Counted from the stretch's first letter, positions 5,797-62,535 are shown. The stretch: 64,000 nucleotides of DNA from Clostridia bacterium (GCA_009619095.1 WJOT01000027.1:6812-70811); one strand, 5' to 3'. Translations and numbers: made by a program. The notes: a model not told the origin generated them from the letters alone.

Positions 5797-5910
5797 GAGG
5801 GATAGTCTTTTGCACGGTTGAAACCGTGCCTACAAATCTCCTTGCCATTGTAGGCACAGATTCAATCTGTGCAATTGACCGAGCGACTCCGATAACTATC
5901 CCTTCATCCT
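5797..5910. repeat. Mosaic palindromic repeat cluster (modules A, B, C/TIR)
   Basis: Hairpin A gcacggttgaaaccgtgc (5812-5829) followed by cctacaaa; hairpin B gcacagattcaatctgtgc (5854-5872); module C gaccgagcgactccgataactatccct (5877-5904), inverted relative to gagggatagt at 5797. Confidence 0.85.
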
Positions 5911-5913
5911 CAC

Positions 5914-6477
5914 TTATTGACTCTGGATTTCAATCTGGCTTCCCCATCCATAGACTGTGCGTCGCACAATGTGGTCGGCGAGCTCAATAACCAGTCGCTC
6001 CTGTGCTTCCTCTTCTGTTTCCACAGTTCCACCTGCCCTGGGAGTTACATAGTACCTTACATCTCCTTCAATCCCTCCAGTAAGGGTTCCACCTACGCTC
6101 TCTCTCTTCTCTTCCCAGAGAACCTCTCCTGTAGCTAAATCTCGAAAAGAGAGATTGACTATGACCCAGAGCTTATACTGTTCAACCACCTCGGTAGCAT
6201 CGTAAGAGAGGGGTTGTAAAATGTAAGTAACAATCTCTCCGGTCAACAGAGCACCGGCCTCCCCTTTCTTGGCAATGGATAAATGGCCATCTCTAATGAA
6301 TTCTTCTATTACAGCGTCGGTAAGTTTAGACTCAATGCCGTAGTGAGCGGTTCTGTTGATAAATGTAGGCACAGCTATTGTCTTAATATGCTTGGGCAGA
6401 ATTTCCACAGGTGTATAAGCACAACCAAATACCAGAAATATTCCCAACCCAATGATAACGAAAACAAACTTTCTCAT
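5914..6477 (-). CDS. lptE: LPS-assembly lipoprotein LptE-like
   Basis: Lipoprotein signal with lipobox (LVFGC), 187 aa, located between leuS and holA as in E. coli. Confidence 0.65.
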   Translation of the reverse strand: MRKFVFVIIGLGIFLVFGCAYTPVEILPKHIKTIAVPTFINRTAHYGIESKLTDAVIEEFIRDGHLSIAKKGEAGALLTGEIVTYILQPLSYDATEVVEQYKLWVIVNLSFRDLATGEVLWEEKRESVGGTLTGGIEGDVRYYVTPRAGGTVETEEEAQERLVIELADHIVRRTVYGWGSQIEIQSQ

Positions 6478-6494
6478 AAGTTCCTCCTTTTTTT

Positions 6495-8957
6495 CTATTT
6501 TTCCACTACAATATTCACTAGTCGCTTGGGCACATAAATTATCCGTTTAATCTTTTTATTATCGATATATTTTCTAACTCTCTCATCTACTTGGGCTCTT
6601 TTCTTTATCTCTTCCTCTTCTAAATTTACCGGAACTTCTACTTTGCTTCTCACTTTACCATTCACTTCAATGACAATAAGCACCTCCTCTTTTTTGATTA
6701 CTTCCTGGTCGTATCTTGGCCAAGATTTTTTAATCACACCTCCCCGATGTCCCAGCACTTCCCATAATTCTTCACAAATATGTGGCGCAAAAGGAACTAG
6801 CAAAAGTATTAATTTTTCTACGCTTTCCCATAAATGGGAGCTCGTGCCTTTCTTCCTTAAGTAATCATATATTCCATTGGAGAGTTCCATAATGGCGGCA
6901 ATAGCAGTATTAAAATGAAAACTTTCTATGTCTTCAGTAACTTTCTTAATAGCTGAGTGGGTAATTCTGTTTAGCTTTTTTTCTTCTTGGTCGTAAGTTT
7001 TAAGAACAGTTTTCTTGTGTTTACTTTTTATTTCTTCTACCAGATTCCGAACTCTGTTCAAGAACCTATAGCAACCCTGAACTCCTCTATCACTCCATTC
7101 TAAATCTTTTTCCGGAGGTGAGGCAAAGAGAATGAATAACCTCGCTGTATCGGCGCCATATTTCTGAGTTATCTCATCTACACTAACTACATTCCCTTTC
7201 GACTTTGACATCTTCGCACCATCTTTAATTACCATTCCTTGACATAAGAGTCTTGTAAAAGGCTCGTCGATCTTGTACAAGCCTATATCCCTCAAGGCCT
7301 TGGTAAAGAACCGGGCATATAGGAGATGCATAATCGCATGTTCAATCCCTCCTATATATTGATCAACCGGCATCCAGTACTTAACTTTTTTCTTATCAAA
7401 AGGTAACTTTTTGAAATGTGGGCTACAATAACGGGCAAAATACCAAGAGGAATCAACAAATGTATCCATAGTATCGGTCTCTCTTCTTGCCGCACCACCA
7501 CATTTTGGACATTTACAATTTACGAACTCGCTACATTTAGCTAAGGGATTCCCCCTTCCCGTAAACTCAACTTTCACCGGTAACTTTACTGGTAAATCTT
7601 TTTCCGGCACAGGCACAATTTTGCACTTATCACAGTAAATTATGGGAATAGGTGTGCCCCAATACCTCTGTCGGGAAATCAACCAGTCGCGCAATCTGTA
7701 CTGAAGCGTCTTTCTTCCCCAGCCTTTCTGGGTCAGATATTGCGTAATCTTTTCCCTTCCATCTGGGGAAGAAAGACCGTCAAACTGGGCTGAATTGGCC
7801 ATAATTCCTTCGCCTTCGTAAGCCTCTTCCAGATCTTCCCCTGTAGAAGATTCCTCTGGAGAAGGGATAATTACCTGTTTTATCGGAATATGATACTTTT
7901 TAGCGAACTCGAAATCTCTCTGGTCATGAGCTGGCACCGCCATTATTGCTCCTGTCCCGTACTCCATCAACACGAAATTAGCTACATAAATGGGAATTTC
8001 ATCTCCATTCAAAGGATTTATCGCATACCTGCCAATAAACATCCCCTCTTTTTCTTTGTCCTCTCCTGTACGAGTGAATCTATCTTCAATTACTACCTTG
8101 TTGATAAATTCTCTTACTCTCTTCTCATATTCTGTCCCAGCGATAAATTCTAGAACTCTGGGATGTTCGGGAGCAAAAGTCATAAAAGTGGCACCATAGA
8201 GGGTATCCGGTCGCGTGGTAAATACTGGAATCAGACTATCGGAATCCTTCAATCTAAAATTGACCAGTGTCCCGTAACTTTTGCCAATCCAGTTCTCCTG
8301 CATAAGTCTAACCCTCTCTGGCCAGTCTGTTAGCTTTTTCAAATTTTCCAGAAGTTCCTCAACATACTCGGTAATCTTAAAGAACCACTGCTCCAGACTT
8401 CTAATCTCCACAAAAGCCTCACACCTCCAGCATTTTCCATTTACCACTTGCTCATTGGCCAGGACTGTCTCGCACTGGGGACACCAGTTGATGGGCGCCT
8501 TCTTCCTGTAGGCGAGACCCTTCTCGTAAAACTTAAGGAAAATCCACTGGTTCCAGCGATAATATTCTGGATCAGCGGTAATTACCAACCTTCCCCAGTC
8601 GTAACTCAATCCCATTTTCTTCTGCTGCTTTTTCATTTTCTCAATACATCTATTCGTCCAAGAAGAAGGATTAATCTTTTTCTCTATTGCTGCGTTCTCT
8701 GCTGGCAATCCCAAAGCATCGTAACCCATAGTGTAAAGCACGTTGAACCCCCTCATCCTCAGGAAGCGAGCTGCAACATCACCAATAGCATAATTACGCA
8801 TGTGTCCCATATGGAGTTCTCCAGAAGGATAAGGGAACATCTCCAGAAGATAGAATTTCTTCTTTCCCGAATCTTTAGAGATTTTGAAAGTTCTTTCCTC
8901 TTCCCACTTCTTCTGCCATTTCTTTTCAATCTTCTTGAAATTGTAAATTTTCTCCAT
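6495..8957 (-). CDS. leuS: Leucine--tRNA ligase
   Basis: 820 aa with HMGH (PYPSGELHMGHMRNY) and KMSKS motifs plus the editing domain. Confidence 0.97.
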   Translation of the reverse strand: MEKIYNFKKIEKKWQKKWEEERTFKISKDSGKKKFYLLEMFPYPSGELHMGHMRNYAIGDVAARFLRMRGFNVLYTMGYDALGLPAENAAIEKKINPSSWTNRCIEKMKKQQKKMGLSYDWGRLVITADPEYYRWNQWIFLKFYEKGLAYRKKAPINWCPQCETVLANEQVVNGKCWRCEAFVEIRSLEQWFFKITEYVEELLENLKKLTDWPERVRLMQENWIGKSYGTLVNFRLKDSDSLIPVFTTRPDTLYGATFMTFAPEHPRVLEFIAGTEYEKRVREFINKVVIEDRFTRTGEDKEKEGMFIGRYAINPLNGDEIPIYVANFVLMEYGTGAIMAVPAHDQRDFEFAKKYHIPIKQVIIPSPEESSTGEDLEEAYEGEGIMANSAQFDGLSSPDGREKITQYLTQKGWGRKTLQYRLRDWLISRQRYWGTPIPIIYCDKCKIVPVPEKDLPVKLPVKVEFTGRGNPLAKCSEFVNCKCPKCGGAARRETDTMDTFVDSSWYFARYCSPHFKKLPFDKKKVKYWMPVDQYIGGIEHAIMHLLYARFFTKALRDIGLYKIDEPFTRLLCQGMVIKDGAKMSKSKGNVVSVDEITQKYGADTARLFILFASPPEKDLEWSDRGVQGCYRFLNRVRNLVEEIKSKHKKTVLKTYDQEEKKLNRITHSAIKKVTEDIESFHFNTAIAAIMELSNGIYDYLRKKGTSSHLWESVEKLILLLVPFAPHICEELWEVLGHRGGVIKKSWPRYDQEVIKKEEVLIVIEVNGKVRSKVEVPVNLEEEEIKKRAQVDERVRKYIDNKKIKRIIYVPKRLVNIVVEK

Positions 8958-9003
8958 GTTTAACTTGCACCCTCAATAAACTTACTTCTCGCCTCTGTCT
9001 TAT

Positions 9004-9756
9004 CTATTCTTTTTTCTTCAAGTAGATAAAATACTCGATATTTCCAGCAGGACCTTTAATCGGCGAAGTAGTCAATCCTTTTACTTCTAATCCCAAATCT
9101 CGAGCTAAAAGCTTTATTTTATCGATAACTTCCTGGTGAACTTTCCTGTCTTTAACCACACCGCCTCTGGGCACTTTTTCTCTCACTGCCTCAAATTGGG
9201 GCTTAATCAGGGAAACTATCTCGCCCCTTTTTCTAATTAACTCTTTAACTTTCGGCAAAACTTTATCCAGAGAAATAAAAGAGACATCGATAGTAGCCAA
9301 ATCGACGGGGTTTTTAATTTCTTTTCCGTTAAAGTATCTTATGTTCGTTTTTTCGATGGTGACCACCCTGGGATTGTTCCGTAATTTCCAATCAAGCTGA
9401 CCGTAACCCACATCCAGGGCATAAACTTTCTCCGCCCCCTTCTGGAGAAGACAATCCGTAAACCCTCCCGTTGATGCGCCAACATCAAGACAGACCTTTC
9501 CTTCAACGCTCAACCCGAACTCCTTTATTGCTGCTTCCAGCTTCAGTCCTCCCCGGGAAACATATTTTCGTAAAGGAGATTCCTTTACTTCTATCTCTAT
9601 ATCAATAGGGAACTCAGCACCTACTTTAATAACTTTCCGACCACCCACCCATACAGAGCCAGCCATTATCAATCCCTTTGCTCTATGGTGACTTGACGCC
9701 AGTCGCTTTTCCATCAAAAGCTTATCTAATCTCTCTTTTCTCTTTTTTATTTTCAC
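9004..9756 (-). CDS. tlyA: TlyA family rRNA 2'-O-methyltransferase (hemolysin A-like)
   Basis: S4 domain (RLDKLLMEKRLASSHHRAKGLIMAG) plus FtsJ-like MTase (LDVGASTGGFTDCLLQKGA..VYALDVG). The ORF-track start at 9825 lies inside hairpin repeats. I prefer GTG 9756, which is just upstream of the S4 domain. Confidence 0.8.
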   Translation of the reverse strand: MKIKKRKERLDKLLMEKRLASSHHRAKGLIMAGSVWVGGRKVIKVGAEFPIDIEIEVKESPLRKYVSRGGLKLEAAIKEFGLSVEGKVCLDVGASTGGFTDCLLQKGAEKVYALDVGYGQLDWKLRNNPRVVTIEKTNIRYFNGKEIKNPVDLATIDVSFISLDKVLPKVKELIRKRGEIVSLIKPQFEAVREKVPRGGVVKDRKVHQEVIDKIKLLARDLGLEVKGLTTSPIKGPAGNIEYFIYLKKKE

Positions 9757-9783
9757 AAATCTATTTTTGTAATAAATTTCTGT

Positions 9784-9882
9784 TGTAGGCACAGATTCAA
9801 TCTGTGCTCTTTTGTCCCGATTCATCGGGACCTACAAATATATTTTGCACGGTTAAAACCGTGCCTACAAATACTATCCCTT
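9784..9882. repeat. Mosaic palindromic repeat cluster (B, D, A, C-end)
   Basis: gcacagattcaatctgtgc 9789-9807; gtcccgattcatcgggac 9814-9831; gcacggttaaaaccgtgc 9847-9864 followed by cctacaaa; actatccct overlaps the dxs stop. Confidence 0.85.
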
Positions 9883-11742
9883 TATGAATTCACCAACTCT
9901 CTGGGCTATCTTATCAGCAGTCAGTCCATACTTCTCTCTTAACTTTTCTCTACTACCATGTTCGATAAATTGATCAGGAAGTCCAATACTTAAAATACGC
10001 ACATTATCAGTCGCCAGTAACTCCTTGATACCCGAGCCGAAACCTCCGGAAAGGGTATTCTCCTCCACAGTAACAACTTTGTGAACTTTCTTGGTTATTT
10101 TCTTTATTAGATCTTCATCTAAAGGTTTAACGAACCTCATGTTAACCAGATTTGCCTTTATGCCTTCTGCTTCCAGTCTCTGCTGGGCCAGGAGACAAGG
10201 ATGCACAGTATTCCCTATCGCCAGGATGGCTACATCATTTCCTTCTGCAAGCACCTCTGCCTTTCCCAGGGGAAGGACTTTATATTGCCTGTCCAATTTA
10301 ACTCCAATGCCCTGGCCTCGAGGAAAGCGAATGGCACAGGGGAAATTCCAGGATAAGGCAGTATTAAGCATGTGCACTAATTCATTCTCATCCTTGGGAG
10401 CCATCACCACCATATTGGGAATTAATCTAAGATAGGAAAGGTCGAACGTTCCCTGATGGGTTGGTCCATCTTCTCCTACTATACCAGCTCTATCTATGGC
10501 AAAGACTACGGGAAGGTTCTGGAGACAAACATCATCGATTATCTGGTCAAATGCCCTCTGAAGAAATGTGGAATAGATGGCACAAACTGGTCTGTACCCG
10601 GCTCTGGCCAACCCTGCGGCAAAGGTAACTGCATGTTGTTCAGCAATTCCCACGTCGAAATATCTCTTGGGAAACTCCTTCTGAAATGCGTCCAGCCCTG
10701 TGCCTTGAGGCATCGCCGCAGTAATGGCAATAATCTTTTCATTCGATTTAGCCAAATCTATAAGAACCCGACTAAATACTTCTGTATATGAAAGAATTTT
10801 ATTTTTTTCTGTCTCTCCAGTCAAAATATTAAAGGGCATTGTTCCGTGAAACTTTATAGGTTCTCGCTCCGCCGGCTGATACCCTTTACCCTTTTTGGTA
10901 ATTACGTGAATCAGGACCGGACCTTTCATATCTTTCACTTTCTGAAAGATTTCGATTAAATAGTGGACATTATGTCCATTAATAGGTCCCAGATAAGAGA
11001 AGCCCATTTCCTCAAAAAGCATCCCTGGAAAGAGAAGTACTTTAAATCGCCGAACTACTCTGAGAATTGCAATGCCCCAGAAGGAAACTCTGGTCAAAAA
11101 CTTTTTTACTCTCCTTTCCAGTTTCTTAACCAGGCCTAAAGTCATCAATTTTGTCAGATATCCTGCCAGAGCTCCCACCCTATGGGAAATGAACATCTCA
11201 TTATCATTTAGAATTACCAGAAGGTCTTTACCCAGGTGTCCGGCATTATTGAGAGCTTCAAAAGCCATTCCTCCGGTCATCGAACCATCCCCTATCACTG
11301 CCACTACCTTCTGGTTGTTGTTGCCAGATAAATCGCGGGCGCAGGCAATTCCCAGAGCAGCTGAGATTGCAGTGGAACTGTGTCCCACGCCAAAGACATC
11401 ATATTCACTCTCGACGGGAGTAGGAAAACCACTTATTCCTCCGTGCTGGCGGAGAGTAGAAAAACTGTCCCTCCTGCCTGTTAGAATCTTATGGGTATAG
11501 GCTTGATGGCCCACATCCCAGATAATCTTGTCCTGAGGGGAGTCAAAAACGTAGTGTAAGGCTATGGTCAATTCAACTGTCCCTAGACTACTGGCAAGAT
11601 GTCCTCCCTTCTGGGATGTCACCGTAATTATTTTTTCTCTGATCTCTTCTGCAAGTTGCGGAAGTAATTCTTTTCTGACCAACCTGAGGTCGCTTGGTCG
11701 GTCAATCAATTCCAGGACTGCCATAGCTTTTGCTTCCTCCAT
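9874..11742 (-). CDS. dxs: 1-deoxy-D-xylulose-5-phosphate synthase
   Basis: 622 aa; GGHLASSLG, GDGSMTGGMAFEALN and transketolase-like C-terminal domains. Confidence 0.97.
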   Translation of the reverse strand: MEEAKAMAVLELIDRPSDLRLVRKELLPQLAEEIREKIITVTSQKGGHLASSLGTVELTIALHYVFDSPQDKIIWDVGHQAYTHKILTGRRDSFSTLRQHGGISGFPTPVESEYDVFGVGHSSTAISAALGIACARDLSGNNNQKVVAVIGDGSMTGGMAFEALNNAGHLGKDLLVILNDNEMFISHRVGALAGYLTKLMTLGLVKKLERRVKKFLTRVSFWGIAILRVVRRFKVLLFPGMLFEEMGFSYLGPINGHNVHYLIEIFQKVKDMKGPVLIHVITKKGKGYQPAEREPIKFHGTMPFNILTGETEKNKILSYTEVFSRVLIDLAKSNEKIIAITAAMPQGTGLDAFQKEFPKRYFDVGIAEQHAVTFAAGLARAGYRPVCAIYSTFLQRAFDQIIDDVCLQNLPVVFAIDRAGIVGEDGPTHQGTFDLSYLRLIPNMVVMAPKDENELVHMLNTALSWNFPCAIRFPRGQGIGVKLDRQYKVLPLGKAEVLAEGNDVAILAIGNTVHPCLLAQQRLEAEGIKANLVNMRFVKPLDEDLIKKITKKVHKVVTVEENTLSGGFGSGIKELLATDNVRILSIGLPDQFIEHGSREKLREKYGLTADKIAQRVGEFIKG

Positions 11743-11746
11743 AATT

Positions 11747-13027: not shown

Positions 13028-13033
13028 CTATTT

Positions 13034-13115
13034 TGTGTAGCAGCAAAGCGAAAGCTTTGCACAGATTGAATCTGTGCCTACAATGGTTTTTGTAGGCACG
13101 GTTTCAACCGTGCAG
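13034..13115. repeat. Mosaic palindromic repeat cluster (E, B, A)
   Basis: gcaaagcgaaagctttgc 13042-13059; gcacagattgaatctgtgc 13058-13076; gcacggtttcaaccgtgc 13095-13112. Confidence 0.85.
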
Positions 13116-16319: not shown

Positions 16320-16338
16320 TTTTTCTCCTTTATGTAAC

Positions 16339-16457
16339 GGCAAAGCGTAAGCTTTGTCTCCTGTAGGGGACGGACGCAGTTTATGCCGATTTTTCGGCAT
16401 GCCGTCCCTTCTTTTGGGCGACCATCCCGATATACATCGGGATCGCCCCTACAATGG
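16339..16457. repeat. Mosaic palindromic repeat cluster (E-like, nested hairpins, D)
   Basis: ggcaaagcgtaagctttgtc; gggacgg..atgccgatttttcggcat..ccgtccc (nested); gggcga..atcccgatatacatcgggat..tcgccc followed by ctacaa. Confidence 0.85.
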
Positions 16458-18043: not shown

Positions 18044-18059
18044 TTTTCCCTCCTATGTG

Positions 18060-18345
18060 AATCAGCTCCGAAGGAGTCCGACGCCTCCATCGGGATTCGG
18101 AGTCCTGTCGGACCTGTGCTTCCCCGATATTACATATCGGGGACTCTCTGTCTCCGGGGCGCTCAAGCGTCTTTCGCCCGCGCCTTTCCCTCGTTTCGCT
18201 CGGTCGTCCCGATTTCATCGGGACCGGCATTCCGGGGCGCTCACCGTCTCGCGCCCGCGCCTTTCCCTCGCTTCGCTCGGTCGTCGCTCCTTATTCGTCG
18301 CGACCGACGCCCCTTCCACAAAGGTTTCCTTAATCTACGGAAAAT
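18060..18345. repeat. GC-rich modular scaffold element, copy 1 (includes a 78-bp tandem duplication)
   Basis: ctccgaaggag, ccccgatattacatatcgggg, ..ctctctgtc.., then tccggggcgctca..gcgcccgcgcctttccctcg.ttcgctcggtcgtc at 18153-18207 and again at 18231-18285, ending ..ccccttcc.caaaggtttccttaatc. The same linker order occurs at 23847-23996 and 30487-30785. Confidence 0.8.
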
Positions 18346-18410
18346 TACCACACTCAAGTTATCCCTGCTGGAAATACGAGGAACTTGGTAATACGACTAT
18401 TGGAATTTAC

Positions 18411-20412: not shown

Positions 20413-20488
20413 ATCAGGAGTAGCCCTGATTTATCCAGCCCCTGCTCTCAGGGGCGGGATTTATCGGGACGTATTCGGAGTAGTCCCG
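20413..20488. repeat. Three consecutive small GC-rich hairpins
   Basis: atcagg-agtagc-cctgat; cccctg-ctct-cagggg; cgggac-gtattcggagta-gtcccg. Confidence 0.7.
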
Positions 20489-23726: not shown

Positions 23727-23795
23727 TTTTCTTCATTCCTGCGAGGGATTTGATTGCTGTAGCAGCCAAGCGTAACCTTTGATTCAATTCTTCTT

Positions 23796-24124
23796 AAAAA
23801 ATAGTTTGTGAAGAGTATTTGGAATTTTAGCCAAAAAACGAGGACAAGTGTTCCTCAAAGGAACACTTCCATAGGGGTTTCACCCCTCTGGCGTTCACCC
23901 CGATTCCATCGGGGTTCTCTGTCACCCCTTGGGGGAAATCAGATTATTTCCCCCAAACCCCCTAATCCGCATCCCGATTGAAAATTGGGATGCTTCACTT
24001 ATCTTCTTTCAAGCAAAAATTTGTCCGAGTCCCGCTGTGCGGGAGGAGTTTATTTTTGTGCCCCGCAGAGTCCGAAGTTTTTTGGCGTTAAGAAATTCCC
24101 AAACGATGAACAAATTATTTTTTA
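23796..24124. mobile_element. MITE copy 1 (329 bp) carrying a nested 150-bp GC-rich scaffold element
   Basis: Ends TAAAAAATAGTTTGT ... ACAAATTATTTTTTA (inverted), extending to imperfect subterminal IRs of about 50 bp (..ggaattttagccaaaaaacgaggac / gtccgaagttttttggcgttaagaaattcc..). Collinear with 27199-27376 except for an insertion at 23847-23996. Confidence 0.65.
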
Positions 24125-27198: not shown

Positions 27199-27376
27199 TA
27201 AAAGATAGTCTGTGAAGAGCTATTGGAATTTTAGCCAAAAAACGAGGACGGCTCATCTTTTTTCAAGCAAATCACTGTCTGACGAGCGAAGCGAGGAGTT
27301 TTGATTTGCGCCTTGCAGAGTCCGAAGTTTTTTGACGTCAAGAAATTCCTCCTAGCGATGAACAGACTATCTTTTA
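27199..27376. mobile_element. MITE copy 2 (178 bp)
   Basis: Perfect 15-bp terminal inverted repeat TAAAAGATAGTCTGT (27199-27213) / ACAGACTATCTTTTA (27362-27376). Subterminal sequence is shared with 23796-24124. Confidence 0.7.
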
Positions 27377-30483: not shown

Positions 30484-30486
30484 TTC

Positions 30487-30785
30487 AAGATAACCCCTTC
30501 GGGGTTACTCCCATAGGGGCTCCGCCCCTCTGGCGCTCACCAAATGTCCACCAGACATTTACTTCTCTGTCCTCCGGGGCGCTCACCATCTCGCGCCCGT
30601 CGCTAACACGGAGCTCCTTACTCGTCGCTCCAGCGGTCCTTCGGACCCGGGGCGCTCACCGTCTCGCGCCCGTCGCTAACACGTCCCGATTTATCCATCG
30701 GGACAGCAACCCCTTGAGGGAAACCAGATTGTTTCCCTCAAACTTCCTAATCCGCATCCCGATTAATAATCGGGATGCTCTTTGA
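30487..30785. repeat. GC-rich modular scaffold element, copy 3 (abuts the RE of the tnpB element)
   Basis: taaccccttcggggtta, ccataggggctccgcccctctggcgctcacc, aaatgtccaccagacattt, cttctctgtc, two ggggcgctcacc.tctcgcgcccgtcgctaacac units (74-bp period), gtcccgatttatccatcgggac, accccttgagggaaaccagattgtttccctcaaacttcctaatccgcatcccgattaataatcgggatgc. Confidence 0.8.
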
Positions 30786-30960
30786 CAACTCCCCATGCCT
30801 AAAGGCAGGGGATTCTCCAACTTATACCATTGCTGGTTTTCGTATTAGGAGTTCCTGTTTCGCTGTGGAAGCTAATGCCTCCACTCCACAGGCTATGACC
30901 GCGTGTCCCGCGGCTAATATGTTTATGCTTGCGTTTAGGTCTGCGTTTTCTGTGTGTCCG
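30785..30960 (-). ncRNA. Expected omega/reRNA of the TnpB element (3' end of tnpB plus RE); extent not determined
   Basis: By analogy with characterised TnpB systems, the guide RNA scaffold overlaps the tnpB 3' end and the RE. The RE hairpin ccccatgcctaaaggcagggg lies at 30791-30811, 11 nt after the stop. Confidence 0.3.
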
Positions 30961-51427: not shown

Positions 51428-51705
51428 GGCACCATTTATGGTGCCGTTCAGTTCCTGTAGCAGCAAAGCGCAAGCTTTCCTTCATTTTACCATTCGGGCG
51501 ACCACCCCGCTTTATCGGGGTAAACTGCGTGTCGCCCCTACACTACATTTGAAATTCTGACCGAGCGCCTCCGATAACTATCCCTACCTTCTAATACGCC
51601 GGGATGAAGGGATAGTTGCAGGAGCTTTAAATCGGTCAGGTAAAGCCCCGGCGCTGGCCGATTTTGAGCGAGGCTCTATCCGAGCGCCTCCGATAACTAT
51701 CCCTT
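51428..51705. repeat. Mosaic palindromic repeat cluster in the trpB-trpA gap
   Basis: ggcaccatttatggtgcc; gtagcagcaaagcgcaagctttcc; gggcgac..ccccgctttatcgggg..gtcgcccctacactac; ctgaccgagcgcctccgataactatccct / ggatgaagggatagttgcaggag..cggtcagg (long imperfect IR); second ccgagcgcctccgataactatccctt overlaps the trpB stop. Confidence 0.85.
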
Positions 51706-52872
51706 AACTATCTCTACGTCTTTATCTCCCCGACCGGAGAGACAAAGAACAATTATCTCATCTTTATTAGTATCCTTCGCTATTTTCATCAAGTAGGCCA
51801 AAGCGTGAGCCGGTTCCAGCGCGGGAATAATGCCTTCGGTTTCAGAGAAGAAATGGAAAGCCTGCAGTGCCTCCTTGTCCGTAACCACAAAGTAATCGGC
51901 ACGGCCTGTCTTCTTATAAAAACTGTGTTCAGGTCCAACTCCCGGATAATCTAAGCCAGGAGCAACAGAATGTGCAGGAAGAATTTGCCCATCGCTGTCT
52001 TGTAGAACATAACTTTTCGAGCCATGCAGGATTCCTATCTCTCCTACATATAGAGGAGCAGCGTGTCTACCACTTTTTATTCCTAACCCAGCTGCTTCAA
52101 CTCCGATAAACTTCACTGCATCGTTATAAAAATGGTGAAATAGGCCCAGAGAGTTACTTCCACCGCCTACACAGGCTATCAAATAATCTGGCAGCCGGCC
52201 TTCCTTTTCCAAAATCTGGCGCTTGACCTCCTTACCAATAACTGACTGAAAATCCCTTACCATCATGGGATAAGGATGCGGACCAACACAGGAGCCTAAA
52301 AGATAGTGCGTTGTTCTTACATTGGCAACCCAGTCTCTAATCGTCTCGTTGATTGAATCCTTTAAGGTTTTAGTTCCCGAAGAGACTGGAATAACTTTCG
52401 CTCCTAAAAGTTCCATCTTAAAAACATTAAGCGATTGCCTCTTTATATCCTCAGTTCCCATATAAATTTCGCATTCCAGTCCTAAAAGGGCAGAAACAGT
52501 AGCTGTGGCTACTCCGTGTTGACCAGCTCCTGTCTCAGCAATGATTCTTCTCTTACCCATCCTTTTTGCCAAAAGTGCCTGACCAAGAGTATTATTTATC
52601 TTGTGGGCGCCCGTATGGCAGAGATCTTCCCTCTTAAGATATATCTTCGCACCACCCAGCTTCTTTGTCAGGTTTCTGGCAAAATATAATGGTGTAGGTC
52701 TTCCTCCATACTCCGAGAGGTAGTATTTGAGTTCATCCTGAAAACTTTTGTCCCTCTTTGCCCTATTGTAAACTCGCTCAAGCTCCTTGAGGGCAGACAT
52801 CAAGGTCTCGGGAACAAACTTTCCTCCAAAGATACCGAAATAGCCTGACTTGTCTGGTAAAACCTTTTCCAT
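51697..52872 (-). CDS. trpB: Tryptophan synthase beta chain (TrpB1)
   Basis: 391 aa; [24 protein letters not shown] (PLP Lys), GGGSN. Confidence 0.97.
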
Positions 52873-52895: not shown

Positions 52896-53049
52896 TTTTG
52901 CACGGTTAAAACCGTACCTACAAATATCAGGAGTGTGAAACGAAAGTTTCACCCTGGTCAAGCTTTCGCTTGACACTCCAACAAACTGCTGTAGGCACAG
53001 ATTCAATCTGTGCAGCTGACCGAGCGACTCCGAAAGCTATCCCTTCATC
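52896..53049. repeat. Mosaic palindromic repeat cluster in the trpF-trpB gap
   Basis: gcacggttaaaaccgtac 52900-52917 followed by ctacaaa; ggagtg[gtgaaacgaaagtttcac..gtcaagctttcgcttgac]cactcc (nested); gcacagattcaatctgtgc 52995-53013; gaccgagcgactccgaaagctatcccttcatc. Confidence 0.85.
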
Positions 53050-53066
53050 TCTATTCCCGTGTAGAG

Positions 53067-53716: not shown

Positions 53717-53753
53717 GGGCGACCACCCCGATACATCAGGACCCCTACATTGG
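53717..53753. repeat. Palindromic repeat module (gggcgacc..ccccgat..ctacattgg)
   Basis: Variant of the gggcga-[cccgat hairpin]-tcgcccctaca module seen at 16418-16457 and 51495-51548. Confidence 0.7.
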
Positions 53754-55164: not shown

Positions 55165-55188
55165 GTCCCGAGTCATCGGGACCTACAA
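55165..55188. repeat. Hairpin module D followed by ctacaa
   Basis: gtcccgagtcatcgggac followed by ctacaa. Confidence 0.7.
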
Positions 55189-57184: not shown

Positions 57185-57251
57185 TCTCTTCTCCTTTGAG
57201 AAGTCTCTGCCATTTGTGACATACTCACGGGATTGAAATCCCGTGCATCTT

Positions 57252-58424: not shown

Positions 58425-58841
58425 CCCTTCCTCTGGTCTTCAATATACTTTTTAATGGTTTCTTCTGATATGTGCCCTATCGTTTCAATGTATGTTGATG
58501 GATTCCACAACTGACCTTTCCACAGATTCTTCTTTATCCTCGGAAACTCTATAAATATTCTTCTGCCGGAAATGCCTTTGAACATTTTATAGATAATAAG
58601 ACGCAGAAAACTTCGGATGCGCCGATACAAAAACATGCACGTGATCTGACATCACTTCTATACTCTTGATTTCAAACCCTTTTTCTTTCGCTATGTCGTA
58701 TAAAATAACTTTCAGCCTGTCAGCTATCTTTTCGGTTAAAACCTCCCGTCTGTATTTAACTGACCATACAATATGGTAATTAACATTATATACAACTGTC
58801 CTTGCGTGTGTGAGATTCCCTATATGTAGATAGTATAACAA
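58421..58841 (-). pseudogene. tnpA: IS200/IS605 Y1 transposase tnpA with one frameshift (near 58600)
   Basis: N-terminal part ..YHIVWSVKYRREVL..SDHVHVFVSAHPKFS (HUH) is in one frame. C-terminal part ..IIYKMFKGISGRRIFIEFPRIKKNLWKGQLWNPSTYIETIGHISEETIKKYIEDQ (catalytic Tyr region) is in another frame. Confidence 0.8.
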
Positions 58842-58908
58842 AAAGTATCAATTAAGTCGATAATTTGCACTATAAACACCTTAACAGATAGTCGCTTTCA
58901 TCTCGGTA

Positions 58909-59496
58909 TTAAAATACCAAGGATTCCCGCGACTTGATTTCTAAAAAATTTCTTAAGAGTTTCTTTCCTTCTTTAGTGAGAATAGATTCTGGATGGAACT
59001 GGACTCCCCAAATCGAGTAGTCTTTATGTTTAATCCCCATAATCTCTTTTCTGTCAGTCTGAGCAATAATCTCCAAACATTCAGGCAGGTTATCTGCCTT
59101 TACAATCAGCGAATGGTAACGTGTTGCCTCAAAAGGATTGGTAATCCCTTCGAATATTCCTTTCTGGTTATGGTAAACCAGGGAAGTCTTACCATGCATA
59201 ATCCTTCCTGCCCTAACTACCTCTCCTCCCAAAGCATAGCCAATGCACTGGTGACCAAGACAGACTCCCAGGATGGGAATCTTTCTTGCAAACTCCTTTA
59301 TTAGACTGCAGGATATCCCGGCATCTTCGGGTCTACCCGGGCCGGGAGAAATAATTATTTTTTCTGGTGCTAATTTAGTAATATCTGAAAGGGAGAGTTT
59401 ATCATTCCGAAAAACCTTCAATCTCTCCCCCATTTCTCCTAAATACTGCACGAGGTTATAGACAAAAGAGTCATAATTATCGATTACCAGAATCAC
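58909..59496 (-). CDS. trpG: Anthranilate synthase component II (glutamine amidotransferase)
   Basis: 195 aa; MILVIDNYDSFVYNLVQYL, GVCLGHQ, HPES. Confidence 0.95.
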   Translation of the reverse strand: MILVIDNYDSFVYNLVQYLGEMGERLKVFRNDKLSLSDITKLAPEKIIISPGPGRPEDAGISCSLIKEFARKIPILGVCLGHQCIGYALGGEVVRAGRIMHGKTSLVYHNQKGIFEGITNPFEATRYHSLIVKADNLPECLEIIAQTDRKEIMGIKHKDYSIWGVQFHPESILTKEGKKLLRNFLEIKSRESLVF

Positions 59497-60986
59497 TATT
59501 CAAGCCCTTTCTCTGCCATTTCAATCGCTTCAAATAATGCCTTTGCTTTATTTATTGTTTCCTCATATTCATTTTTAGGAATGGAATCAGCCACAATTCC
59601 TGCCCCGGCCTGGAGAAAAGCCTCTTTTCCCTTTATCAGGATCGTCCTAATGGTAATCGCCATATCCATGTTTCCCTGAAAGCTGAAATATCCCACTGCT
59701 CCAGCATAGGATCCTCTTTTTAGATTTTCCAACTCCTCTATTATTTCCATTGCCCTGACCTTTGGCGCTCCGGAAACTGTGCCCGCGGGGAAACAGGCTC
59801 TAAGGACATCGAAGCTATCCATTCCTCTTTTTAGTTTACCAACCACTCCTGAAACAATGTGCATTACATGGGAATACCTCTCAATAACCATCAATTCTGG
59901 CACTTTAACGCTACCATACTCACAGACCCGACCGATGTCATTCCTTCCCAGGTCGACCAGCATAAGATGCTCTGCTCTCTCTTTGGAACTCTTGAGCAAT
60001 TCTCTTTCTAATTTCTTATCCTCAAATTCGTCTTTCCCTCGCGGTCTGGTACCTGCTATAGGTCGAACTTCAACTCTTCTTCCCTCTTGTCTGACGAGAA
60101 TTTCCGGTGAAGAACCGACAAGATTCATCCCTCCCAGCGAGAGATAATACATATAAGGTGAAGGATTGATAACTCTCAGTGCTCGATAAATATCGAAAGG
60201 ATGCGCACTAACCTTTGTTTGTAACCTCTGAGACAGAACAGTCTGGATAATATCTCCTGCTTTTATATACTCCTTAGCCTTTTCCACAATCTTCTCAAAA
60301 CCGTTTCTGGTAAAATTCGATTCCAGGATTATCTTTGAGCTTCTTGACCGTCTTACTTTAGGTCTCTTCTTTGGTTTCTTTCTCAACTCAGTTATTAACT
60401 TTTCAATCTTCCTGCACGCTTCATTATACAAGGTCTTTAGATTATTTTTTTCTCTATCTAAATGGACACAGGATACAACTTTAATTGTATGGGCTACGTG
60501 GTCGAAGATCAGGAGATTATCTGTAAATATAAATTTACAATCAGGCAAGTCGAGGTCATCAGGATTAGTGCTGGGTATATCTTCAATGAACTTTACCATA
60601 TCGTATCCAATATAACCTACAGCTCCTCCGTAGAATCGAGGTAGCCCTTCCACTTCTACTGGCTTGTATTTCTGCATAATTTTCCTCAATTCTTCAAGAG
60701 GATTGTCTGTCTCTTTCACTTGCCGCATTACTGGAGCCTTAAGACTCAAAGTAACTTTTCTCCCTTTACTCTCAAAAATTAATGCCGGGCTACTGGATAA
60801 GAAAGAGTACCTTCCCAGCTTTTCTCCCCCTTCAACACTTTCCAGAAGATAGGCATGCTTTCCCATACCAACTTTGGTGAATGCAGAGACCGGCGTTTCC
60901 ATATCGGCGAGGATTTCTTTATAGACGGGAAGTAAATTTCCTTTTTTTGCTAATCTTTTGAATTGACTAAAACTTGGATGGAACAT
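59496..60986 (-). CDS. trpE: Anthranilate synthase component I
   Basis: 496 aa; chorismate-binding domain (..SPYMYY.., ..GTVSGAPK.RAMEII.ELE...RG.Y.GAVGY..). Confidence 0.95.
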   Translation of the reverse strand: MFHPSFSQFKRLAKKGNLLPVYKEILADMETPVSAFTKVGMGKHAYLLESVEGGEKLGRYSFLSSSPALIFESKGRKVTLSLKAPVMRQVKETDNPLEELRKIMQKYKPVEVEGLPRFYGGAVGYIGYDMVKFIEDIPSTNPDDLDLPDCKFIFTDNLLIFDHVAHTIKVVSCVHLDREKNNLKTLYNEACRKIEKLITELRKKPKKRPKVRRSRSSKIILESNFTRNGFEKIVEKAKEYIKAGDIIQTVLSQRLQTKVSAHPFDIYRALRVINPSPYMYYLSLGGMNLVGSSPEILVRQEGRRVEVRPIAGTRPRGKDEFEDKKLERELLKSSKERAEHLMLVDLGRNDIGRVCEYGSVKVPELMVIERYSHVMHIVSGVVGKLKRGMDSFDVLRACFPAGTVSGAPKVRAMEIIEELENLKRGSYAGAVGYFSFQGNMDMAITIRTILIKGKEAFLQAGAGIVADSIPKNEYEETINKAKALFEAIEMAEKGLE

Positions 60987-61005
60987 AAATTCCCTTTACT
61001 TATTT

Positions 61006-61034
61006 CATCGGAGTAGCTCCGATTTATCGGAGCG
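61006..61034. repeat. Overlapping hairpin modules (tcggag/ctccga family)
   Basis: tcggag-tag-ctccga and ctccgat-tta-tcggag. Confidence 0.65.
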
Positions 61035-61048
61035 TAATGAATCAGCCC

Positions 61049-61447
61049 CTATTTCTTATAGACTTTGCTGGGGTCAAAAACTTTTTCCTCAACAATATCA
61101 TATTCTCCTTTTTCATTAACCTTCCTGAAGAAACACGACCTGTATCCCGTGTGGCAGGCAGCACCGCCAAGTTGTTTCACTTTTACCAGTAGTGTGTCAC
61201 CATCACAATCGAAAAAAATCTCTTTGACCTCCTGAAAATGTCCTGATTTTTCCCCTTTAGTCCACAGTCTCCCTTGGGAACGACGCCAAAAACAGGTCTT
61301 TCCAGTGGCTATTGTCTTTTCCAGAGACTCTGCATTCATATAAGCCAGCATCAAAATCTGACCATCTTCATAATCCTGCACTATTGTTGGAATCAAACCT
61401 TGACTATCAAATTTCAATTCTTCTATAAACTTCATTGTTACCTCCAA
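61049..61447 (-). CDS. hisI: Phosphoribosyl-AMP cyclohydrolase (HisI only, no HisE domain)
   Basis: 132 aa; ..GLIPTIVQD...[13 protein letters not shown]...G...FWRRSQ..LW.KGE.SG..Q.V.....[20 protein letters not shown]. Confidence 0.9.
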
Positions 61448-61458
61448 AAACTTTTTCT

Positions 61459-61741
61459 ACCTTTTAACACCCCAAGGATGAAGGGATAGTTGCAGGAGCT
61501 TTAATTCCGTCAGGTTTTCTGTAGTGTAGCCCTTTATGGGCGTAATTTTACGGGCATAAAGCCCTACACTACCGAGCGACTCCGATAACTATCCCTACCT
61601 TTTAACACCCCAAGGATGAAGGGATAGTCGCAGGAGTTTTAATTCCGCCAGGTTTTCTGTAGTGTAGCCCTTTATGGGCGTAATTTTACGGGCATAAAGC
61701 CCTACACTACCGAGCGACTCCGATAACTATCCCTTCATCCT
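61459..61741. repeat. Tandem duplication (2 x 138 bp) of a TIR-bounded palindromic element
   Basis: Units 61459-61596 and 61597-61734 differ at 4 positions. Each unit reads accttttaacaccccaa + GGATGAAGGGATAGT..gcaggag.. gtagtgtag[gccctttatgggc][gggcataaagccc]ctacactac ..cgagcgactccgataACTATCCCT. Confidence 0.9.
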
Positions 61742-62466
61742 CCCTTTTCTGCTATTTCCATAGCCTCCTGGAGCTTTATGTCATCTGTATATAGCGCCCT
61801 TCCAATAATCATGCCGGAAACACCGTCTTTTTCCAGTTCCTTAATTCTCTTTACATCATCTAATGTGGAGATACCGCCACAGGCAATAACTGGAATTCTA
61901 ACCTTCTCAGCGAAAGCCTTTATCCCCTTTACATTGGGCCCTTTCAACATTCCATCCTTCTTTATATCGGTGAAGATTATCTCTTTCACTCCCATCTCTT
62001 CTACCCTTTTAGCCAGAATCATCGACCGAACAGCAGTAATTTCTTTCCAACCCCCAATAGCTACTTTTCCGCCCAATGAATCTATGCTTATTATAATTTT
62101 ATCCCCAAACTTTTTTAATGCTTTTTTTACTGTATCTGTATTATAAATTGCCGAAGTGCCCAGGATAACTTTAGCTACACCACCGGATAATACTCTCTTG
62201 ATAGTATCCATATCCCGTATGCCACCACCAACTTCTACAGGAACATTAATACTCTTTGCAATTTTCACAATCAGCTCAAGATTCTGGATTACACCAGAGA
62301 AGGCGCCATCGAGGTCAACTATGTGAATCCTTTTTGCTCCCTGAGCCTGCCAAAGCTTCGCCATAAAGAGAGGGTCCTTAGAAAATATAGTCTCCTGTTC
62401 TAATTTCCCCTGGACCAGGCGAACACAGTTTCCACCCCGAATGTCAATAGCCGGAATAACAAGCAT
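61735..62466 (-). CDS. hisA: ProFAR isomerase HisA
   Basis: 243 aa; MLVIPAIDIRGG.CVRL.QG, ..VGGGIR.., ..GGI....D. Confidence 0.95.
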   Translation of the reverse strand: MLVIPAIDIRGGNCVRLVQGKLEQETIFSKDPLFMAKLWQAQGAKRIHIVDLDGAFSGVIQNLELIVKIAKSINVPVEVGGGIRDMDTIKRVLSGGVAKVILGTSAIYNTDTVKKALKKFGDKIIISIDSLGGKVAIGGWKEITAVRSMILAKRVEEMGVKEIIFTDIKKDGMLKGPNVKGIKAFAEKVRIPVIACGGISTLDDVKRIKELEKDGVSGMIIGRALYTDDIKLQEAMEIAEKGG

Positions 62467-62473
62467 AGTCCCT

Positions 62474-62535
62474 CCTACAACGCGGAGCTACGTCTTTCTA
62501 CCGCAGAGCTTCGTCCCGATGAATCGGGACAGCTA
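62474..62535. repeat. Palindromic repeat modules in the hisB-hisA gap
   Basis: cctacaa..; gtcccgatgaatcgggac at 62513-62530. Confidence 0.7.

Follow-up and report, generated by a model that had tools for sequence, protein, structure and literature searches.

The intergenic GC-rich hairpins of the 64,000-nt stretch of DNA analyzed here (hereafter, the window) are REP elements, that is, tiny palindromic DNA parasites with a GTAG tag, the copying of which is attributed to a dedicated tyrosine transposase. The hairpin modules are probably REP-type mobile DNA, non-autonomous and handled in trans by a RAYT (REP-associated tyrosine transposase) encoded elsewhere. In the proposed scheme, the basic unit of approximately 22–26 nt, in which a perfect GC-rich hairpin is preceded by an unpaired GTAG (in most cases as TTGTAG), would be recognized on single-stranded DNA, cut, and rejoined in trans by the RAYT, an HUH/Y1 transposase whose gene would be located outside the window. 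Several REP families, each with its own stem and loop, coexist as singletons, inverted dimers, and clusters; they would accumulate at insertion-tolerant places, chiefly downstream of genes in co-directional operons. The "combinatorial" look of these regions would arise because REPs have landed in two palindromic carriers of greater length, MITE1 (~95–125 nt) and MITE2 (~180 nt), as well as in one another.

Most modules represent a single unit, GTAG followed by a perfect 7–8 bp hairpin with a loop of 2–4 nt, and it is this combination of GTAG with a short perfect hairpin that defines GTAG-tagged REP sequences. In the window, GTAG is located directly 5′ of 10 out of 130 outermost perfect hairpin instances (0.38 expected; P ~1e-11), the runner-up 4-mer being observed 4 times. 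The same tag directly precedes 937 of 5250 hairpins (~15 expected) in 1.05 Mb of metagenomic DNA from the lineage, where the tagged hairpins fall into 33 stem classes and these into superfamilies, with the loop kept and stem positions covarying. Some hairpins have no GTAG, e.g., the D-type ones at 18206, 23897, and 30683, as well as those of GC-rich arrays. In assays of S. maltophilia group-3 REPs, cleavage needs GTAG, a perfect stem, and one loop base; the window units match these REPs in GTAG, the 8-bp perfect stem, and the 2–3 nt loop.

The initial annotation had compared the modules with REP/BIME elements, and this comparison is correct. Its motifs were all recovered to within 1–7 nt: module A, GCACGGTT(N2)AACCGTGC, at 5812, 9847, 13096, and, with one mismatch, 52900; module B at 5854, 9789, 13059, and 52995 (0 expected for each of the two); D-type hairpins at 9814, 16424, 18121, 18206, 23897, 30683, 55165, and 62513; module E at 13037, 16334, 23759, and 51457; and GGGCGA..TCGCCCCTAC at 16416, 51496, and 53717. 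What the initial annotation missed is that TGTAG/CCTACA is the GTAG tag of the whole superfamily and not a module-specific flank (PMC3733652).

A class A unit (GTAG + GCACGGTTtcAACCGTGC; 5812..5833, minus strand) forms a dimer with a class B unit (GTAG + GCACAGATtcaATCTGTGC; 5850..5872, plus strand), their GTAG tags facing inward. Three REPs are situated in the dxs-tlyA gap (B, 9785–9807, plus; D, 9814–9835, minus; A, 9847–9868, minus), and three more between ispA and larA (E, 13037–13060, plus; B, 13059–13081, minus; A, 13092–13113, plus), the B/A dimer of the latter region (13037..13113) being oriented opposite to the dimer at 5812–5872. The rny-ymdB gap (16334..16452) contains an E-like unit with a GTAA head (16334–16355), a GTAG+GGGACGG..CCGTCCC unit with a nested hairpin (16363–16408, plus), and a unit composed of GGGCGACC, ATCCCGATatacATCGGGAT, and CGCCCCTAC (16416–16452, minus). 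Downstream of 6S RNA, there are three hairpins (20413..20488), two of them with GTAG in the loop or flank, at the position of a RAYT gene in the related contig L118. An E-like unit (23759–23780) starts the cluster at 23759..24123, and half of a class-I REP (TTACGGGCATAAAGCCC; 43230..43246) is found upstream of an IS110-family gene. The trpB-trpA gap (51457..51546) contains E (51457–51478, plus) and GGGCGACC..GTCGCCCCTACACTAC (51496–51546, minus), whereas in the trpF-trpB gap (52900..53050) A with one mismatch (52900–52921, minus) and B (52991–53013, plus) surround a nested 50-nt palindrome (52930–52979) that is inserted relative to the pair at 5812–5872, in line with the nesting and shuffling noted initially. 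On the upstream side of trpF, a partial GGGCGACC..CCCCTAC unit (53717..53748, minus) overlaps the start end of the ORF. The remaining units are class D (GTAG + GTCCCGAtgacTCGGGAC; 55165..55186, minus), GTAG + GGGAGGCactccgtgGCCTCCC (56020–56045, plus), a half palindrome of the GGAGTGTCAAACGAAAGTTTGAC family (56057–56079), GTAG + CTCCGATttATCGGAG in the trpE-hisI gap (61013..61032, plus), and, between hisB and hisA, a D-type hairpin with GTAG two nucleotides off the stem (62513..62536, minus). With imperfect copies included, there are approximately 27 tagged units in 64 kb, which is probably among the higher densities published for such elements.

Perfect hairpins with a stem of at least 8 are observed 40 times in the window, vs. 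10 ± 3.7 in first-order Markov simulations, and 34 of 65 hairpins with a stem of at least 7 fall into DNA not covered by long ORFs, which makes up 13% of the window. The reported excess of ACTATCCCT or its complement is reproduced as well (11 occurrences, 0.63 expected, none of 100 shuffles reaching 11). The claim that nearly every intergenic gap is filled is, however, an overstatement: the 5.7–62.6 kb range has 33 gaps with a length of 40 nt or more, and modules are present in some 17–20 of them. A perfect GC-rich hairpin is found in 15 gaps, a hairpin or a lineage-wide repeat in 17, and about 19–20 are filled once imperfect copies read by eye are counted; the area between 34.7 and 50 kb is nearly devoid of modules. 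The filled gaps are indeed GC islands (44–58% GC), but the window, at 33–45%, is AT-rich only in relative terms. In the lineage DNA, 439 of 479 GTAG-REPs do not fall within any ORF of 120 aa or more, although such ORFs make up 78% of the DNA.

The vocabulary is completed by two longer carriers bounded by terminal inverted repeats, for which we use the names MITE1 and MITE2, and by GC-rich arrays of lower copy number. The long terminal inverted repeats of both carriers are not of the REP format. That of MITE1 is perfect over 15–16 bp (GGATGAAGGGATAGTT) and extends imperfectly to ~30 bp; the "15-bp inverted terminus" of the initial annotation is not a further hairpin module, being instead the end of this separate 95–125-nt carrier. 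REP-free MITE1 occurs as well, in a form of 95–99 nt with a central stem of its own, and MITE1 is present in at least five species-level MAGs. A MITE1-type carrier between a 187-aa gene and holA (5797..5909, minus; 5′ arm 5878–5909, short far end AGGGATAGT at 5798–5806) encloses the first REP dimer and has orthologous copies in contigs L072 and L200. MITE1 often donates the stop codon of the upstream gene. Thus, the TAG of the terminal 9-mer AGGGATAGT at 9873..9881 (minus) is the dxs stop codon (9874–9876), as also in L119; in one and a half copies at 51556..51709 (minus), the TAG of the terminal AGGGATAG terminates trpB (51697–51699); and the hisA stop codon (61735–61737) is the TGA of the terminal GGATGA of two tandem 138-nt units (61448..61745, minus), each of which contains a class-I REP dimer with outward GTAG tags (61521–61572, 61659–61710). 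A degenerate MITE1 5′ arm is found in the trpF-trpB gap (53016–53050, minus). The terminal inverted repeats of MITE2 are ~30–50 bp long. Its copy at 23797–24123, with nested hairpins at 23846–23868, 23897–23915, and 23929–23956, contains some 150 nt of additional hairpins relative to the copy at 27201..27375, which has no nested hairpins and is bounded by AAAGATAGTCTGTGAAGAG.. and ..GATGAACAGACTATCTTTT.

Classical bacterial MITEs (Correia/NEMIS, ERIC, RUP, BOX) are 100–200 nt long, intergenic, and co-transcribed with operons, and have terminal inverted repeats and target-site duplications or known DDE parents. It is conceivable, though rather doubtful, that MITE1 and MITE2 are likewise moved by a DDE transposase and are unrelated to REP/RAYT, serving as mere landing pads for REPs. 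Their long terminal inverted repeats, the typical MITE size of 95–190 nt, and the fact that MITE1 arms flank none of the four RAYT loci described below agree with such an origin. On the other hand, no target-site duplication was visible at the 23 inspected MITE1 copies, and no autonomous parent was found for either carrier. Moreover, the MITE1 arms differ consistently (TT[A/T]TCGGAG vs. CTCCTG[T/C]AA), just as strand-specific HUH elements have unlike left and right ends, and the orientation is absolute, MITE1 being gene-sense in 48 of 48 cases. Finally, RAYT-like genes with long inverted repeats (TIRtrons/TIRYTs), forming moderately abundant repeat families, have been described (PMC3733652), and such elements accompany GTAG REPs in other REP-rich genomes; this link is only a lead, as no tyrosine transposase gene was detected between MITE1 or MITE2 arms.

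The GC-rich array upstream of rny (18044..18410) consists of two ~76-nt units and D-type hairpins without the GTAG tag (18121–18143, 18206–18224); it has one unit fewer in assembly L002 and is missing from L118, the gap being 367 nt in the window vs. 103 nt in the latter. A composite array of ~300 nt (30484..30821; hairpins at 30491, 30542, 30683, 30714, and 30754) is ~81% identical to L026 1567–1864, with two inner hairpins exchanged, and neither of its two flanking genes was detected around the L026 copy. Other orthologous gaps in L118, L119, L120, and L072 contain other elements or are empty, and therefore the elements appear to be mobile rather than conserved regulators. Since no clean filled-vs-empty junction of a single REP was recovered, transposition is inferred from such gap-level differences.

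In E. coli, REPs stabilize upstream mRNA and lower translation when located near the stop codon. The hairpins might be host-selected RNA elements punctuating polycistronic mRNAs, i.e., 3′-exonuclease barriers, RNase Y/RNase III processing sites, or modulators of translation, and would then be repeated on account of function and not selfish spread. They are indeed situated inside the dxs-ispA-xseAB-ymdB-rny and trp-his operons, and GTAG-REPs prefer unidirectional gaps (277, compared with 21 convergent and 8 divergent). MITE1 is always gene-sense, starts at the stop codon or within 22 nt of it in 21 of 48 cases, and has a strong RNA fold (z = −6.5) with a few compensatory pairs. Further, exact GTAG+B is found in at least 118 metagenome contig stretches; this spread is in line with mobile elements, but the exact conservation of B between species could alternatively reflect a host function. 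Still, we consider this explanation unlikely, and the role in mRNA punctuation or stability proposed initially is unsupported by sequence tests. REP heads do not favor either strand with respect to transcription (151:126, p = 0.15), G.U and A.C mismatches are symmetric (14:9), no hairpin is terminator-like on the sense strand, and stems are Watson-Crick perfect on both strands, which fits recognition at the DNA level; the empty or differently filled orthologous gaps show that no site-specific function is conserved. Replication accounts equally well for the orientation of MITE1, as 96% of the genes are co-oriented with a GC skew of 0.2.

Mobilization by RAYTs agrees with the gene content of related genomes. 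The window contains no RAYT, only a frameshifted IS200-type tnpA, but the RAYT search suggested by the initial annotation was successful in close relatives: four RAYT-type genes were identified, each with GTAG-type hairpins alongside. Their NCBIfam NF047646 scores (cut-off 80) are 85 bits for L118 1934–2326, 100.8 for L118 7052–7585, 114.8 for L186, and 78.9 for L154, and E. coli TnpA-REP (4ER8) is the top solved-structure match for both L118 proteins. At three loci (both in L118, and L154) the hairpin repeats are inverted on the two sides; the L186 gene has one GTAG-tagged hairpin downstream and a direct repeat without the tag on both sides. The REP flanking the L154 gene, GTAGTGTAGGGCTTTATGCCCG, is the unit at 61521–61572 and is central in a 113-nt inverted-repeat element of the window. 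No RAYT flanked by class A, B, D, or E was found in ~1.1 Mb of lineage DNA chosen for the presence of B. RAYTs would mobilize these particular families, probably by single-strand cutting and joining, by analogy with the in vitro reaction of the E. coli, S. maltophilia, and Marinomonas enzymes.

An origin of the A/B-type hairpins from IS200/IS605 ends, with mobilization by the TnpA of that element instead of a RAYT, is very improbable. A decayed tnpA-tnpB IS does reside in the trp operon (57185–58908), and its 3′ hairpin CACGGGATTgaAATCCCGTG (57226–57245) resembles the GCACNNNTT.AANNNGTGC superfamily, but GTAG is missing from this hairpin, the IS itself carries a frameshift, its tnpA fragments score as IS200-type and not RAYT-type, and 1.05 Mb of lineage DNA contains no further copies, compared with more than 200 A/B-like units. 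Chance palindromes or an assembly or chimera artifact, for which no support was found, can be dismissed given the shuffle and Markov controls, the 99.7–100% identity of the window DNA to contigs of three other metagenome assemblies, and recurrence in many metagenomes and MAGs.

IS200/IS605 elements and their palindrome-associated derivatives share with the REPs single-strand, hairpin-recognizing HUH chemistry without target duplication, distinct left and right ends, and strand-specific insertion linked to replication; in contrast, REPs are far smaller, have GTAG in place of an IS-specific guide sequence, and are associated with TnpA of the RAYT and not the IS200 type. The small dispersed repeats of Nostoc (Elhai et al. 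2008) are reportedly intergenic and nested in each other. The Anabaena variabilis GTAG-15 family also features REP dimers within a longer palindromic carrier (PMC3733652); the carrier sequence is unrelated, and MITE1 also exists REP-free, is strictly strand-oriented, and abuts stop codons. The closest system is that of GTAG REPs with RAYT/TnpA-REP (E. coli REP/BIME, Pseudomonas REPINs, S. maltophilia SMAG/group-3; Di Nocera 2013, PMC3733652; Corneloup 2021, PMC8266576). Common features are an unpaired GTAG at one end of a GC-rich perfect 7–8 bp stem with a 2–4 nt loop; high copy number in extragenic DNA, mainly between co-directional genes, with an arrangement in inverted dimers and clusters; the coexistence of several families in one genome, with sub-families showing complementary stem changes; TAG stop codons given to upstream ORFs; and the flanking of RAYT genes by REPs of their own class. 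The published family-specific RAYT loci, dimers, and dimers within long palindromes are all matched here (PMC3733652). GTAG repeats have been listed for Proteobacteria, Cyanobacteria, Chloroflexi, and PVC (PMC3733652), whereas public labels of the present host lineage are Clostridia, Elusimicrobiota, or simply "bacterium." Hence, the kind of element is already known, but the REP families, with their stem and loop vocabulary, are new, their density and variety are unusual, and their host is an uncultured bacterial lineage.

The intergenic hairpins of the window are best explained as several families of GTAG-tagged REPs (a GTAG tag followed by a GC-rich hairpin) together with longer carrier elements, which RAYTs (REP-associated tyrosine transposases), present in close relatives but absent from the window, would mobilize. 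The initial annotation was correct in sensing their REP-like nature. Both the GTAG tag and the anatomy match known GTAG-REPs. All motif positions that it stated were recovered. There are four copies each of modules A and B (0 expected), ACTATCCCT occurs 11 times (0.63 expected), and D, E, and GGGCGA..TCGCCC units are present in the hairpin and repeat lists of the window. Perfect hairpins with stems of at least 8 bp number 40, compared with 10 ± 3.7 in simulations. The REP-like stems are perfect, 7–8 bp long (up to 11 bp), with loops of 2–8 nt, and form short (20–50 nt) stem-loop palindromes, as do GTAG-tagged REPs. Approximately one-half of all hairpins with stems of at least 7 bp (34/65) are localized outside long ORFs, though such sequence makes up 13% of the window.

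An artifact of assembly is ruled out by contigs of three other assemblies, which match the window at 99.7–100% identity over 1.9–12 kb. Two local differences were observed: the array at 18044–18410 contains one ~76–79-nt unit more than its counterpart in the SRR2426730 assembly (L002, positions 5585–5660), and a contig of ERZ3612385 (L001) carries a 597-nt duplication in ispA at 4822–5421. These could reflect strain variation or assembly collapse and expansion at repeats.

The GC content of the window is 33–45%, GC skew on the plus strand is negative, and the minus strand carries nearly all long ORFs. The NCBIfam assignments agree with the operons named in the annotation. One group (4755–18043) includes holA, a 187-aa gene, leuS, tlyA, dxs, larA, ispA, xseB, xseA, ymdB, and rny; the other (50605–63128) includes trpA, trpB, trpF, a trpB-like gene, trpC, trpD, a decayed insertion sequence (IS), an ORF at 58909–59496 (trpG by position alone), trpE, hisI, hisA, and hisB. 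Many gaps are indeed filled with modules; the statement that nearly every gap is filled proved too broad. Between 5.7 and 62.6 kb, 33 gaps measure 40 nt or more, and 15 of these contain perfect GC-rich hairpins; hairpins or lineage-wide repeats occupy 17/33, or about 19–20 if imperfect copies are counted, and the area between 34.7 and 50 kb is nearly devoid of modules. The longest-ORF starts of tlyA (9004–9825), ymdB (15528–16400), and the trpB-like gene (53794–55176) overrun REP-filled gaps. The family alignments of these three genes begin 10–31 residues into the longest ORF, and hence the true starts are probably located downstream.

To characterize the flanks, we counted the 4-mer directly 5′ of each outermost perfect hairpin on both strands. 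In the window, GTAG precedes 10 of 130 hairpin instances (0.38 expected, P about 1e-11), the runner-up 4-mer being found four times; in 1.05 Mb of lineage DNA, it adjoins 937 of 5250 instances (~15 expected) from 33 stem classes. The extended consensus is TTGTAG followed by a hairpin and then often by AAAAGA. As GTAG lies directly 5′ of hairpins, the "CCTACAAA" and "TGTAG" flanks, which are present but were initially taken to be separate, constitute a single tag read on either strand. The same type of unit includes A, B, D, E, GGGCGA..TCGCCC, GGGAGGC..GCCTCCC (56020), CTCCGAT..ATCGGAG (61013), and GTAGTGTAG with GGCTTTATGCCC (61521). By such a count, the window contains about 27 tagged units (~0.4 per kb); the GC-rich arrays at 18044–18410 and 30484–30821 and some D-type hairpins lack GTAG.

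Across the lineage, REP classes cluster by loop, and stems covary. The loop groups are GCACNNNttNaaNNNGTGC (including A and B), GGGNNNNatttatNNNNCCC, GGGNNNN(a/c)c(t/g)c(c/t)gtg.., and GGGNNNGcttgC..; the A/B superfamily can be written as GCACNNNTT.AANNNGTGC. Inverted dimers and clusters resembling REPINs and BIMEs are formed in two arrangements. The tags face inward in the A/B dimers at 5812–5872, 13059–13113, and 52900–53013, and outward in the dimers of class I, a further REP class, at 61521–61572 and 61659–61710.

Everything central to these observations fits the known GTAG superfamily. Its 24 families from Proteobacteria, Cyanobacteria, Chloroflexi, and PVC bacteria have stems of 6–13 bp, short loops, and sub-families with complementary stem changes; dimers are classed by tags facing inward or outward, and several families may coexist in one genome, with a separate RAYT locus for each (Di Nocera et al., 2013; PMC3733652). 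These REPs favor unidirectional and convergent gaps near ORF 3′ ends, and their termini donate TAG stop codons. The same study describes RAYT-like genes bordered by long inverted repeats and, in A. variabilis, dimers embedded in long palindromes (PMC3733652). REPs of group 3 are perfect palindromes of 23 nt, whose cleavage requires GTAG, an intact stem, and a loop base, while the mechanism of REP dissemination has been called still unresolved (Corneloup et al., 2021; PMC8266576). New, compared to the known GTAG-REP systems, are the host lineage, the specific families, and the behavior of MITE1, one of two carriers with terminal inverted repeats.

The genomic placement is that of high-copy, dispersed, extragenic repeats. 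ORFs of at least 120 aa constitute 78% of the lineage DNA, and 92% of GTAG-REPs are located outside them; by gap type, 277 are in unidirectional, 21 in convergent, and 8 in divergent gaps. Orthologous gaps contrast sharply between the window and the related contigs L118, L119, L120, and L072. The gap upstream of rny is 367 nt in the window, 103 nt in L118, where it resembles the window only over the first ~100 nt and lacks the array, and 357 nt in L119, with other elements. The rny–ymdB gap measures 166 nt in the window and 629, 67, and 88 nt in L118, L119, and L120, respectively; for dxs–tlyA the lengths are 138, 361, 727, and 1015 nt. The tlyA–leuS gap is module-free in all four (46, 45, 22, and 19 nt).

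Several observations bear on a possible role of the modules in RNA. No bias of REP head orientation relative to transcription was seen in the lineage DNA (151:126, p = 0.15), and single stem mismatches on the sense strand are about equally G.U and A.C (14:9). No REP module is terminator-like on the sense strand (a GC-rich hairpin followed by a U-run); a single site internal to the second carrier, MITE2, does qualify. The Rfam 15 scan of the window matched no module even at E ≤ 0.1. At the gathering threshold, it identified three tRNAs and a 6S RNA, the latter encoded between zapA and rarA at 20524–20678 on the minus strand; one sub-threshold match at E ≤ 0.1 fell on a tRNA gene. In L118, a RAYT and a REP array are inserted directly downstream of the orthologous 6S RNA.

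The search for RAYTs proposed in the annotation yielded none in the window and four loci flanked by GTAG-type hairpins in relatives, one of the hairpin classes being present in the window as well. The syntenic contig L118, with an RNase Y 87% identical, contains two stand-alone Y1_Tnp genes. One has four hairpins of the GTAGG+GGCGAGCTTGCTCGCCC type before it and an inverted GGGCAGGCAAGCCTGCCCCTAC after it; two (G/T)TAGCAGACTTTAGTCTGC units precede the other, and eleven tandem inverted copies follow it. At 7590–7870 of L118, directly downstream of a RAYT, eleven 28-nt units (GCGCAGACTAAAGTCTGCTAATCCTAAG) are arranged head-to-tail. Among solved structures, the L118 proteins match E. coli TnpA-REP (4ER8) best, and both the H-x-H and Y-I..N segments align. 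Two further RAYTs, from L186 and L154, were identified by a local profile search of lineage DNA. On the NCBIfam model NF047646 ("REP-associated tyrosine transposase", cut-off 80 bits), the L118 pair (1934–2326 and 7052–7585, respectively) scores 85 and 100.8 bits and the L186 protein 114.8 bits, compared with 18–32 bits for these three on the IS200 model; they thus belong with TnpA-REP, not with the TnpA of IS200. One GTAG-tagged hairpin lies downstream of the L186 gene, and a direct repeat lacking the tag borders this gene on both sides. The L154 gene (12329–12874) has on both sides GTAGTGTAGGGCTTTATGCCCG units, the REP found at the center of MITE1 copies in the window. It is interrupted in frame by a REP dimer of its own class, placed immediately behind the HUH motif (..EHLHFL|CRVEPYAHKNYAHKGLHYP..), which lowers its score to 78.9 bits, just under the cut-off.

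None of the RAYTs encountered in 1.1 Mb of lineage DNA has A, B, D, or E at its flanks, and an HMM search of the same DNA at high sensitivity (E ≤ 50, filters off) revealed no further RAYT; a regular-expression screen for small HUH-containing ORFs in the first relatives yielded nothing useful. L118 is rich in the REP class adjacent to the 177-aa RAYT, and the window lacks this class, a distribution that is weak evidence for family-specific RAYT–REP pairing.

In its own sense, MITE1 has the form GATGAAGGGATAGTT(A/T)TCGGAGTCGCTCGG...(center)...GAAGCTCCTG(T/C)AACTATCCCTTCATC. The terminal inverted repeats comprise 15 perfect base pairs with a GGAG:CUCC extension, and the fold of the 95–99-nt form consists of an outer stem of 15 bp, an internal loop that is conserved, a GGAGU:GCUCC helix, and an inner stem of 11 bp in which three positions covary. 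In copies of 113–115 nt, as at 61477–61739, the center is replaced by a class-I REP dimer; at 5797–5909 and in the orthologous locus of L200, it is B+A or B+D, and other hairpins occur elsewhere. In all 48 cases, the 5′ arm has the same sense as the upstream ORF. For 11 copies, the upstream stop codon lies within the terminus GGATGAAGGGATAG, being TGA or TAG in two frames; in the window, GGGATAG contributes its TAG to dxs and trpB, and GGATGA its TGA to hisA. Ten more copies begin at most 22 nt from a stop codon. The co-oriented fraction of ORF length per locus is 96%, with a GC skew of ~0.2, and hence orientation linked to transcription cannot be separated from that linked to replication.

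Classical DDE-type MITEs are characterized by target duplication and a related autonomous IS. No target-site duplication is visible at 23 MITE1 copies, and no autonomous parent IS with the ends of MITE1 or MITE2 was found in the lineage DNA searched. We also considered the MITE1 linker TTAAGAGGTG as a ribosome-binding site of the downstream gene and dropped this possibility, since the linker usually precedes a second MITE1 arm rather than a start codon. A speculative and rather improbable reading is that MITE1, with its asymmetric arms always in gene-sense (leading-strand) orientation, is a previously undescribed strand-specific intercistronic element, whose central slot accepts various REP dimers; taken with the hairpin exchanges described below, REP hairpins would then be swapped at fixed GTAG sites.

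MITE2, which also has terminal inverted repeats, is present at 23797–24123 with nested hairpins and at 27201–27375 without them, and seven other loci carry it as well. The GC-rich arrays are found in low copy number. A counterpart of the 300-nt array at 30484–30821 occurs in L026 at ~81% identity with two inner hairpins exchanged; the two genes flanking it in the window were not detected there.

In-place exchange of hairpins between near-identical flanks was observed in three cases. In the gap upstream of holA, the 60-nt flanks of the window and L200 are mostly identical, save for a 6-nt spacer deletion in L200; hairpin A (GCACGGTTTCAACCGTGC) in the window corresponds to D (GTCCCGATCAATCGGGAC) in L200, GTAGG and AAAGA being retained. 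A search for hairpins between matching 20-nt flanks produced 91 flank-matched pairs, 90 of the same class and one of different classes, the latter being a tandem-array variant with a compensatory A-T to G-C change. Exchange is therefore anecdotal rather than pervasive: it happens, but the main sources of the combinatorial appearance are nesting and independent insertion.

Other mobile or probably acquired DNA is also present in the window. A decayed IS200/IS605-type element (57185–58908) separates trpD from the ORF at 58909–59496 inside the trp operon, with tnpA split by a frameshift (58587–58841 and 58421–58636), tnpB interrupted by an in-frame stop (57786–58424 and 57252–57734), and a 3′ hairpin at 57226–57245. 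No further copy was found in 1.05 Mb of lineage DNA, and because of this single occurrence, its ends cannot be defined or compared with A and B. The sole long plus-strand ORF with a family match encodes an IS110-family transposase (DEDD_Tnp_IS110 and Transposase_20; 43351–44757, region 43138–44757), and half of a class-I REP (~43230–43246) lies in non-coding DNA upstream of it. REPs are targets of some IS110-family elements. At 34729–42438, integration-site-like repeats are stacked at tRNA-Thr(CGT): full genes at 41027–41099 and 42361–42435, partial 3′ copies at 37203–37245 and 37897–37939, and a flank copy at 34780–34857. This region has low GC content (0.33–0.39), no REPs, and mostly unannotated small proteins, and is probably acquired; a scan of ten ORFs revealed no integrase. 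A short tandem repeat, CCCCGGAACTTT x3, is located at 35010–35045, in the intergenic gap that lies downstream of the 35063–35923 ORF.

We scanned 596 Gb of genome contigs with a 17-nt degenerate MITE1 pattern. Most of the 114 matches are due to chance, as the pattern is too short for this amount of sequence, and only contigs with several matches or a BLAST match to the window were retained. By this low-specificity scan, MITE1 is present in at least five species-level metagenome-assembled genomes (MAGs), and the MITE1-bearing MAGs are labeled Clostridia. Source labels conflict ("bacterium", Elusimicrobiota, Aminicenantes) within one 90% RNase Y cluster. RNase Y homologs form a genus-level cluster at 85–89% identity, the nearest named relatives being only ~60% identical. 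Exact GTAG+B (22 specified bases) occurs in at least 118 metagenome contig stretches, and the 1.05 Mb of lineage DNA resulted from this search; as the sample is biased towards B, family proportions in the 1.05 Mb are not genome estimates. No GTAG+B was found in viral contigs, and the lone viral match to a MITE1 arm, inside a groEL-like coding sequence, was discarded as a chance one.

The elements account for over-extended ORF starts and for gene ends inside repeats; at tlyA, ymdB, and the trpB-like gene, automated annotation would take REPs into the coding sequence. They are also likely breakpoints in metagenome assemblies of the lineage. More generally, GTAG-REP/RAYT systems are extended here to an uncultured, poorly classified lineage with an unusually rich repertoire of at least 33 stem classes and at least four RAYTs across relatives. 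Many close relatives with the same gaps filled differently provide good material for deriving insertion rules from population data, and families with conserved loops and covarying stems, as well as a strictly oriented carrier, are likewise useful in this respect. If the above reading of MITE1 is true, it would represent a natural record of insertion-site choice by RAYTs and, possibly, an element adapted to life inside operons.
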